From sequence record PV544177.1: a stretch of DNA of 64,000 nucleotides. One strand, 5' to 3'. This DNA is from Enterococcus phage Revolver. Below are positions 31,020-31,166 of the stretch, in pieces. Numbering within the stretch: position 1 is the stretch's first letter; the number at the start of each line of letters is the position of its first letter. The notes under the pieces were generated by a model. The model saw only the letters and a program-made list of their open reading frames with translations, had not been told where the DNA came from and ran no database searches. The position numbers and the translations under genes were made by a program.

Positions 31020-31166
31020 ATGTACCCATATCTATCAATGTTATACGCATCTTACGTAATTAAAGACCCTGCGAATTATCCTTTGGAGAAAGTTCCGGCA
31101 CTAATTAGAGAAGATGTGGAGAAAATCGTAGAAGAAATGGCAAAAAAGAACGAAAAACAAGAATAG
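31020..31166 (+). CDS. micro-ORF B (48 aa), paralog of micro-ORF A
   Basis: The peptide is MYPYLSMLYASYVIKDPANYPLEKVPALIREDVEKIVEEMAKKNEKQE. An AGGAGG RBS lies 8 nt upstream. It aligns to micro-ORF A over its full length. Confidence 0.5.
   Translation: MYPYLSMLYASYVIKDPANYPLEKVPALIREDVEKIVEEMAKKNEKQE

Follow-up and report, generated by a model that had tools for sequence, protein, structure and literature searches.

The 64,000-nucleotide (nt) stretch of Enterococcus phage Revolver DNA analyzed here (PV544177.1; hereafter, the window) contains, in its tail and baseplate morphogenesis block, a 48-amino-acid (48-aa) open reading frame (ORF) that we call ORF B, which has a smaller paralog, ORF A, upstream (Table 1). 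ORF B encodes exactly the translation given for it in an initial annotation of this DNA and lies, as described there, after the tail fiber cluster, 3′ of both a large tail protein gene and a 241-aa gene related to tail fiber proteins. Comparative evidence suggests that a recoded late gene of the PHROG 1382/CD1375-like micro-protein family is probably encoded here, with ORF B as its zero-frame part.

A slippery heptamer and a hydrophobic −1 extension at ORF B

Close to its 3′ end, ORF B contains the heptamer A_AAA_AAG as a proposed −1 frameshift site, and from this point the −1 frame is open for 27 codons. The basic stretch KKERKTR, of which ERKTR is read in the −1 frame, precedes a glycine-zipper-like segment that is predicted to be transmembrane, and the −1 tail has a 17-residue Kyte-Doolittle maximum of 2.74. 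The predicted −1 product is 70 aa long, comprising residues 1 to 43 of ORF B and the 27 additional codons, and matches PHROG 1382 over residues 1 to 47 only. ORF B is alone among the window's plus-strand ORFs of 40 aa or more in having both an in-phase heptamer close to its end and a −1 tail that is hydrophobic.

The −1-frame stop lies 12 nt before the stem of an intrinsic terminator, the stem and T-run of which are kept in four lineages (the hairpin scan reported this terminator on the minus strand, and the plus-strand T-run was read directly). The 78-nt gap that separates the zero-frame stop from the terminator is the open, hydrophobic −1-frame extension itself. The initial annotation took the stop codon ending at position 31166 for the end of the gene and overlooked both the in-phase heptamer and the conserved −1 transmembrane tail. 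ORF A has no in-phase heptamer and no hydrophobic −1 tail, and on sequence this feature is what sets ORF B apart from it.

The hydrophobic segment includes a direct 12-nt duplication at 31196..31219 (…GGT CTA TGC ATA GGA TTG TGT ATA…, encoding GLCI GLCI) that is absent from the Kochikohdavirus relatives and accounts for a 4-codon difference in tail length. When the tails of the window and phage AllMyExes were aligned as DNA, they differed by a single indel, which is 12 nt long and therefore, as a multiple of 3, in frame.

Table 1. Features of the ORF A and ORF B loci and their surroundings (window coordinates)
Feature	Position	Strand	Basis or remark
Tail sheath gene	11621..13330	+	
Tail tube gene	13393..13815	+	
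Second terminator-like site, after tail tube gene and before ORF A promoter	13823..13855	+	
Sigma-70-like promoter, TTGACT-17-TAAAAT, directly 5′ of ORF A	13868..13896	+	Consensus scan only; putative
ORF A, 46 aa, MKYPYLVELYAKHVVRDNSYINNVPEVIKDDVEKRVKEMEEQVDLV, soluble-only paralog	13930..14070	+	PHROG 1382 match
Terminator-like hairpin and T-run overlapping ORF A stop codon	14054..14085	+	
Tail assembly chaperones (2 ORFs)	14152..14649 and 14717..15292	+	
Tail protein	27855..30266	+	
Upstream partner gene, 241 aa, PHROG 1348 "tail fiber protein"	30260..30985	+	C-terminal helix KENKELRQKVEFNELALMDAINM
ORF B Shine-Dalgarno region, AGGAGGTGAT, part of AAGGAGGTGAT	31004..31013	+	Direct sequence reading
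ORF B zero-frame coding sequence, 48 aa, ATG..TAG	31020..31166	+	ORF listing, PHROG 1382 match, annotated orthologs, purifying selection
Slippery heptamer A_AAA_AAG, proposed −1 frameshift site	31142..31148	+	X_XXY_YYZ phase; zero-frame codons GCA AAA AAG
−1-frame extension, 27 codons, ERKTRIVNLVVGVAIGLCIGLCIGLLA, and TAA (31229..31231)	31148..31231	+	Open −1 frame
Hydrophobic glycine-zipper-like segment, 22 residues, IVNLVVGVAIGLCIGLCIGLLA	31163..31228	+	Predicted transmembrane
Intrinsic terminator, GAGGATAGC-UUCG-GCUACCCUC and then T6	31244..31271 (stem, 31244..31265)	+	
Promoter-like element TTGTACTATATTA, 5′ of the baseplate-module gene starting at 31316	31281..31293	+	Invariant in four diverged lineages
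Baseplate-module genes	from 31316	+	
TRCTATATTA copies	383, 2176, 4418, 6240, 10608, 14138, 31284, 36795	+	

Conservation of the heptamer and tail

The DNA sources for the comparison were annotated phages, 43 IMG/VR contigs, the metagenome contigs of distant family members, and isolate bacterial genomes. In a first set of unfused B-type loci, which included the 43 IMG/VR contigs, 49 of 49 carried A_AAA_AAG or A_AAA_AAA in phase, 15 to 18 nt before the zero-frame stop. The −1 frame of these loci encodes basic residues resembling KK(A/E)RR and then approximately 20 hydrophobic residues with a G..IG...G motif; the 17-residue Kyte-Doolittle maximum of the −1 tail is 1.5 to 2.8, whereas that of the +1 frame does not exceed 1.2. 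The design is present in Kochikohdavirus, Schiekvirus, the VRE9_4/EF1 group, and the temperate phage EG-TP1, and the tails of these lineages are widely different in sequence (VVFLTLGVSIGLVAGLAIGFFL in Schiekvirus, VILFGLGMLVGFLLALLIF in VRE9_4, and IIGYVVSGAIGLIVGCFLF in EG-TP1), so that what is conserved is a property of the tail rather than an inherited sequence.

Sixty unique family genes were classified in total. A canonical heptamer in phase and at the homologous position, together with a hydrophobic −1 tail, was found in 49 of them; two genes were fused in frame, one (L056) had the tail with a degenerate site, and eight, including ORF A, were soluble only. The 49 genes use five heptamer variants, and their carriers are Enterococcus myophages, temperate phages, prophages in isolate genomes, and Lactobacillus phage LBR48. 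Distant members have G_GGA_AAG (L059 and L060), A_AAA_AAC (LBR48), or A_AAA_AAG (L057 and L061) at the homologous place, and the split arrangement was also found in prophages of Enterococcus innesii, E. dispar ATCC 51266 (two copies), and E. hailinensis. Conservation across deep divergence thus extends to the heptamer, the phase in which it lies, and the hydrophobic tail in the −1 frame. A soluble-only paralog accompanying the recoded gene is likewise recurrent: in LBR48 (gp03/gp04) and L059/L060 the two are tandem neighbors, and in the window they are separated by 17 kb.

Two homologues have the tail fused to the body in frame. One is the 66-aa metagenomic protein P0003 (…EEMAKKARKTRIVNLVIGVTIGLIIGLLI), and the other, P0010, is from another lineage and has its junction exactly where a −1 shift predicts it. 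Compared with unfused relatives, the two contigs with fused genes (L008, 254..454, and L009, 771..977) each have one inserted base and a substitution at the slip site, and both consequently encode KK-A-R at the junction. These contigs could be natural "locked-in" variants or could be errors, and because their coverage is 1.1 to 1.6x, we count the fused homologues as supporting evidence only.

Purifying selection on the 48-codon body

The ORF B protein is 98% identical to its counterparts in approximately 37 Kochikohdavirus phages, in which the flanking DNA is only approximately 83% identical. Between the window and AllMyExes, ORF B differs by 10 synonymous and 2 nonsynonymous codon changes, and the neighboring 241-aa gene has 83.5% DNA identity. 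For ORF A and ORF B, synonymous sites are saturated at 51% protein identity, and we therefore used orthologs to estimate the ratio of nonsynonymous to synonymous substitution rates (dN/dS). Among 34 unique temperate-phage orthologs, dN/dS of the body is 0.11 in the zero frame and greater than 1 in the other frames. ORF B is a real gene under purifying selection. ORF A is much less conserved, with 64% protein identity in the same phages, and was found in Kochikohdavirus-like genomes only.

Origin of the −1 tail

The simplest alternatives to recoding concern the reality of the split gene and the way in which its second part would be translated. A sequencing or assembly error was ruled out, as approximately 40 independently sequenced phages and isolate bacterial genomes share the split. 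Independent translation of a hydrophobic peptide was likewise ruled out: in 44 of the 46 unique −1 ORFs, the hydrophobic segment is not preceded by any ATG, GTG, or TTG, and initiation within these ORFs consequently cannot make the tail.

A further alternative is that only the 48-aa soluble protein is made and that the −1 ORF is a nonfunctional relic of a longer ancestor, or chance. The GenBank records inspected annotate only a coding sequence (CDS) of 147 to 153 nt, no stimulatory RNA element was found, and the dN/dS of the tail is just modestly below 1, all of which would fit this explanation. A relic would, however, gather stop codons and lose hydrophobicity, and the tail is instead open, basic, and then hydrophobic across lineages that share merely 40 to 60% identity in the body and have largely different tail sequences. 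Moreover, the identity of the heptamer changes while its position and phase persist, and the sole DNA-aligned indel in the tail is in frame. In shuffles that preserve composition, an open and hydrophobic −1 frame arises with a probability of 0.001 to 0.066 per lineage; the joint probability over four deeply diverged lineages, taken as the product, is approximately 1e-9, with the in-phase heptamer not yet counted. We therefore regard a relic or a chance ORF as very improbable.

If the tail is expressed through slippage, the slipping enzyme could be the RNA polymerase rather than the ribosome, with one A added in the run of six or seven and the edited mRNA encoding the fused 70-aa protein. The sites are mostly homopolymeric A runs (A6G in 41 of the unique genes and A7 in 4), and in the fused contig L008 the A6 of its relatives is lengthened to A7. 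Runs of six or seven A residues are, however, short for efficient polymerase slippage, and the two fused contigs show an insertion plus a substitution rather than a pure change in run length. Transcriptional slippage also needs no X_XXY_YYZ phase, yet the run is in phase in every lineage, and the G_GGA_AAG of L059 and L060 is not homopolymeric. Because of this strict phase and this nonhomopolymeric site, ribosomal slippage is favored, and the transcriptional route appears unlikely. Slippage at this site presumably occurs, and presumably does so on the ribosome.

Several observations weigh against programmed frameshifting at ORF B. No stimulatory hairpin or pseudoknot at 5 to 9 nt was conserved in the folds of six lineages; the downstream hairpins start approximately 27 to 35 nt after the site and vary by lineage, and none is significant in Kochikohdavirus. 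Direct reading found no Shine-Dalgarno-like motif at the usual upstream distance. The low coverage of the fused contigs means that errors are possible there, and L056 has kept the tail beside a degenerate A_AAG_AAA. The tRNA-Lys repertoire of the host affects the efficiency of A_AAA_AAG; the window encodes no tRNA genes. Finally, the constraint on the tail sequence is weak: its dN/dS is lowest in the −1 frame, at 0.65 to 0.73 compared with 0.99 to 1.18 in the other frames. The case for frameshifting rests on conserved properties, namely, the open frame, charge, and hydrophobicity; weak constraint of this kind is as expected of a membrane helix tolerating exchanges among I, V, L, and A. An Rfam search gave no match at the ORF B locus. 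The dnaX heptamer alone supports approximately 14 to 16% frameshifting in vitro (bioRxiv 10.1101/2025.10.02.679949), and a bare heptamer could thus suffice for a minor isoform.

Predicted products and membrane topology

In the proposed mechanism, most ribosomes would stop after the 48 codons, and their product would be a soluble protein of two helices. A fraction would instead slip back one nucleotide on A_AAA_AAG and read the 27 further codons in the −1 frame, adding ERKTR after KK and then a hydrophobic glycine-zipper helix of approximately 22 residues, before terminating just 5′ of the terminator. The outcome would be a 70-aa, tail-anchored membrane isoform with the predicted junction peptide EEMAKKERKTRIVNL. 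Following the positive-inside rule, the N-terminal hairpin would be cytoplasmic, and its second helix would run straight into the membrane helix. With a soluble and a tail-anchored isoform both made, one gene would provide a fixed ratio of free and membrane-tethered forms of the same 43-residue domain, whereas ORF A would provide the free form only.

The predicted long form has the layout of a tail-anchored protein, with a single hydrophobic helix at the extreme C terminus, basic residues before it, and no N-terminal signal peptide, and it presumably inserts into the membrane. An AlphaFold2 model of a fused homologue (predicted local distance difference test score, 88) has a helix at residues 3 to 15, a loop, and a continuous helix at residues 27 to 65 that spans the soluble domain into the hydrophobic tail. 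The helical hairpin that the initial annotation expected is consistent with this model. A fold search with the model against the PDB gave no match at an E value of ≤0.001.

ORF A and ORF B as a paralogous pair

ORF A and ORF B share 51% identity over 39 aa (BLASTP E value, 3e-11). Their Smith-Waterman score of 96 was reached by 0 of 5,000 shuffles (mean, 25; standard deviation, 5; z = 14.1), so that the paralogy proposed in the initial annotation withstood the shuffle check; the separation, put there at 17 kb, measures 17.09 kb. That the two are real, diverged genes retained at the protein level is also borne out by the ortholog identity, the substitution pattern, and the dN/dS of 0.11. Both are preceded by AGGAGG, as claimed, but the spacer to the ATG is not 8 nt in either case: it is 10 nt for ORF B (AGGAGG at 31004..31009) and 7 nt for ORF A (13917..13922). 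A terminator was placed immediately after each copy; the ORF A hairpin in fact overlaps the stop codon, and the ORF B hairpin is 78 nt away from it. On balance, the initial annotation holds for most of what it observed and for part of its interpretation.

A promoter-like motif, TRCTATATTA, does follow both copies, as had been noted. It occurs eight times in the window, on the plus strand only, where 0.96 copies are expected, and the copies at 14138 and 31284 come after the ORF A and ORF B terminators, respectively. The motif resembles an extended −10 element (TGCTATATT), and the majority of copies are in gaps 5′ of late genes; we consider it a candidate late promoter element.

ORF A is located between the tail tube gene and the first chaperone gene. 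The region from 13823 to 14147 contains, in order, a terminator, a sigma-70-like promoter, a ribosome-binding site, ORF A, and a terminator, an arrangement suggestive of a self-contained unit. In EFLK1 and several relatives, the tail tube gene and ORF A are separated by an inserted gene for an HNH or "intron encoded" nuclease.

Family membership and existing annotation

The initial annotation regarded the family as unannotated, which is wrong: both ORFs carry "hypothetical protein" annotations in relatives, and both match PHROG 1382, a 48-position profile with no assigned function (ORF B, E = 3.4e-15 over profile positions 2 to 47; ORF A, E = 2.1e-13). Orthologs of ORF B are annotated as a 147-nt CDS in EFLK1 (YP_009219861.1), AllMyExes, EFDG1, EfV12-phi1, and others, and the ORF A ortholog is annotated in EFLK1 (YP_009513935.1). 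The paralogous pair is by itself modestly interesting and already cataloged.

The relationship to CD1375 is indirect. The NCBIfam model NF040910 gave no match at an E value of ≤10 for either ORF, and for the Pfam model PF23792, ORF A was below the cutoff (E = 0.032; 14.7 bits versus 27) and ORF B had no match. Among 18 aligned family members, 12 match NF040910 (best E value, 8.4e-10) and 10 match PF23792 (best E value, 7.7e-4), and by this sequence evidence the window proteins are tied to CD1375 transitively, via intermediate relatives. The window proteins have in common with the PHROG 1382/CD1375 family an N-terminal domain of approximately 43 residues with the signature L..LYA..V......VP..IR..V..IV, an occurrence as small proteins in phage tail or lysis regions, and frequent tandem or duplicated copies; a Faecalibacterium phage, for example, has two adjacent CD1375 genes (PMC13432834). 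Classic CD1375 members (e.g., L011) differ in being approximately 36 to 40 aa long and soluble, without a slip site. Very short, diverged family members are hard to reach, since a word-indexed search found 4 proteins and an exhaustive profile search found 16.

XkdX of PBSX is similarly a protein of approximately 45 aa encoded between the tail fiber genes and the holin and endolysin genes of Gram-positive phages, and enterococcal prophage genes of 138 bp have been named XkdX (PMC9376991). The resemblance to the window proteins is in size and position only, and membership in this family was rejected, as neither the window proteins nor the 18 members had a hidden Markov model match to TIGR01669 or PF09693 in Pfam and NCBIfam. 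ORF B also had a Pfam match to PCP_red (E = 0.0028), but it fell far short of the cutoff and was judged to be spurious.

Upstream partner, gene context, and possible function

The gene directly 5′ of the B-type gene, which is the 241-aa gene in the window, is homologous in every lineage examined, as determined by all-against-all BLASTP. The homology is in the last ~35 residues (ENxELxQ…E.AL..L.DM), and the N-terminal part varies from 60 to 210 residues, so that by sequence the partner has a variable N-terminal part and a constant C-terminal helix. The upstream proteins are 95 to 112 aa long in temperate phages and just 96 to 98 aa in EfV12-phi1 and EF1.

Large tail fiber or receptor-binding genes always precede this two-gene module. 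What comes after it varies: a coiled-coil/transmembrane protein, holin, and endolysin in temperate Enterococcus phages, VRE9_4/EF1, LBR48, and several metagenomic contigs, and a terminator and then the baseplate genes, with no adjacent lysis gene, in the window and other Brockvirinae. In LBR48 (L064; NC_027990, 815..2559), a reverse transcriptase gene lies directly 5′ of the partner gene and the tandem CD1375-like pair, and the Faecalibacterium phage has a comparable order, with a reverse transcriptase followed by the two CD1375 genes (PMC13432834). Pfam searches with the neighboring genes gave nothing above threshold.

Our best guess is that the gene encodes an accessory or assembly factor of the tail fiber module that is active partly at the cytoplasmic membrane, possibly through the conserved C-terminal helix of the partner. 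Such a role could mean assembly or the tethering of a partner at the membrane. It is favored because the module stays with the fiber genes in those phages in which the fiber and lysis genes are separate, and roles in lysis or exclusion seem less likely.

In the lysis programme, the anchored isoform would slowly accumulate and modulate the holin or the membrane as an antiholin or timer, with the soluble form competing. The gene is directly 5′ of the holin and endolysin genes in temperate Enterococcus phages, VRE9_4/EF1, L057, L062, and LBR48, often with another coiled-coil/transmembrane protein alongside, and glycine-zipper transmembrane helices tend toward self-association in the membrane. In the window and all Kochikohdavirus and Schiekvirus relatives, however, the gene lies between the tail fiber and baseplate genes and is followed by a terminator, and where the modules separate it keeps with the fiber module and the upstream partner. 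Neither the ORF B product nor the predicted 70-aa form matches a holin family, and the next genes in the window are those of the baseplate module. A lysis function is therefore doubtful.

Placement directly after receptor-binding or tail fiber genes would also suit superinfection exclusion or a block to DNA entry by the membrane isoform, as for the llp gene of T5 or the cor genes, with ORF A as a moron-like gene. The family is common in prophages, and ORF A is flanked by terminators and preceded by a sigma-70-like promoter of its own. PADLOC, however, found no match to a defense model, the predicted topology puts almost nothing outside the membrane, and the phage lineage to which the window belongs is virulent. 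Assembly is the better fit for a gene so tightly paired with a soluble partner gene, and we consider exclusion to be improbable.

Genomic setting

A search with 4 kb around ORF B matched 54 phage records, 53 of which are Enterococcus phages, with best nucleotide identities of 82 to 83%. The matches include phiEF24C, EFLK1, and other members of Herelleviridae/Brockvirinae/Kochikohdavirus, and on this basis the window is a Kochikohdavirus-like Enterococcus myophage of a virulent lineage. The large ORFs of the window are on the plus strand without exception, and the morphogenesis block also encodes a tape measure protein and large tail proteins in addition to those in Table 1.

The two tail assembly chaperone ORFs are in different frames; upstream of the second, its frame stays open back to 14633, which gives a 17-nt overlap with the end of the first. 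PHROG 4988 (350 positions) covers both proteins, and a frameshift in the region 14633..14717 (+1 relative to the first ORF) may join them. A complete group I catalytic intron (Rfam RF00028; 74.9 bits; E = 3e-17) is located on the plus strand at 62649..62905, between or within the ORFs at 62124..62663 and 62972..63670.

Relationship to known recoded genes

Programmed frameshifting in tailed phages is well established for tail assembly chaperones and a few capsid genes. A close parallel to the ORF B slip site is that of Escherichia coli dnaX (tau/gamma), which has the identical A_AAA_AAG and the same preceding GCA codon and likewise gives two C-terminally different products from one gene. In contrast to ORF B, where the shift would extend the protein by a membrane anchor, the shift in dnaX causes immediate termination and a truncated product, and dnaX is boosted by an upstream Shine-Dalgarno-like element and a downstream hairpin, whereas no conserved stimulator was found for ORF B.

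The G/GT system of phage lambda is also a late tail module gene with a −1 shift near its 3′ end and a minor extended isoform at a fixed ratio, and its heptamer, G_GGA_AAG, is used by the family members L059 and L060. The proteins are unrelated, however; the ORF B extension would be a single transmembrane helix rather than a soluble domain, and the window has separate tail assembly chaperone genes. The S105/S107 holin and antiholin of lambda similarly come from a small phage gene with two isoforms that differ in membrane behavior and are made at a set ratio. That system uses alternative N-terminal initiation of a holin, in contrast to the C-terminal recoding of a nonholin proposed here, and ORF B is not adjacent to lysis genes in this phage.

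Within the incomplete coverage of our literature search, there was no description of recoding in the PHROG 1382/CD1375 family, and none of the GenBank records inspected has a joined CDS. Programmed −1 frameshifting is a known mechanism; what appears to be new is that it would supply a phage micro-protein with a membrane anchor, in a design conserved across myophages and siphophages of Lactobacillales. If confirmed, this would be a new and widely conserved recoding event in therapeutic-type Enterococcus phages (relatives of phiEF24C, EFLK1, and EFDG1) and many prophages, in which recoding changes where in the cell a micro-protein resides, rather than appending a soluble domain, and the gene annotation would be corrected in dozens of deposited genomes. 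It would also offer a functional handle on the uncharacterized CD1375/PHROG 1382 family. As a tentative and rather unlikely extension, the ratio of free to tethered protein set by recoding may, together with the partner, couple tail fiber maturation or virion completion to the membrane, or to lysis timing; if true, this would be an unrecognized, recoding-controlled step in the late programme of Lactobacillales phages.

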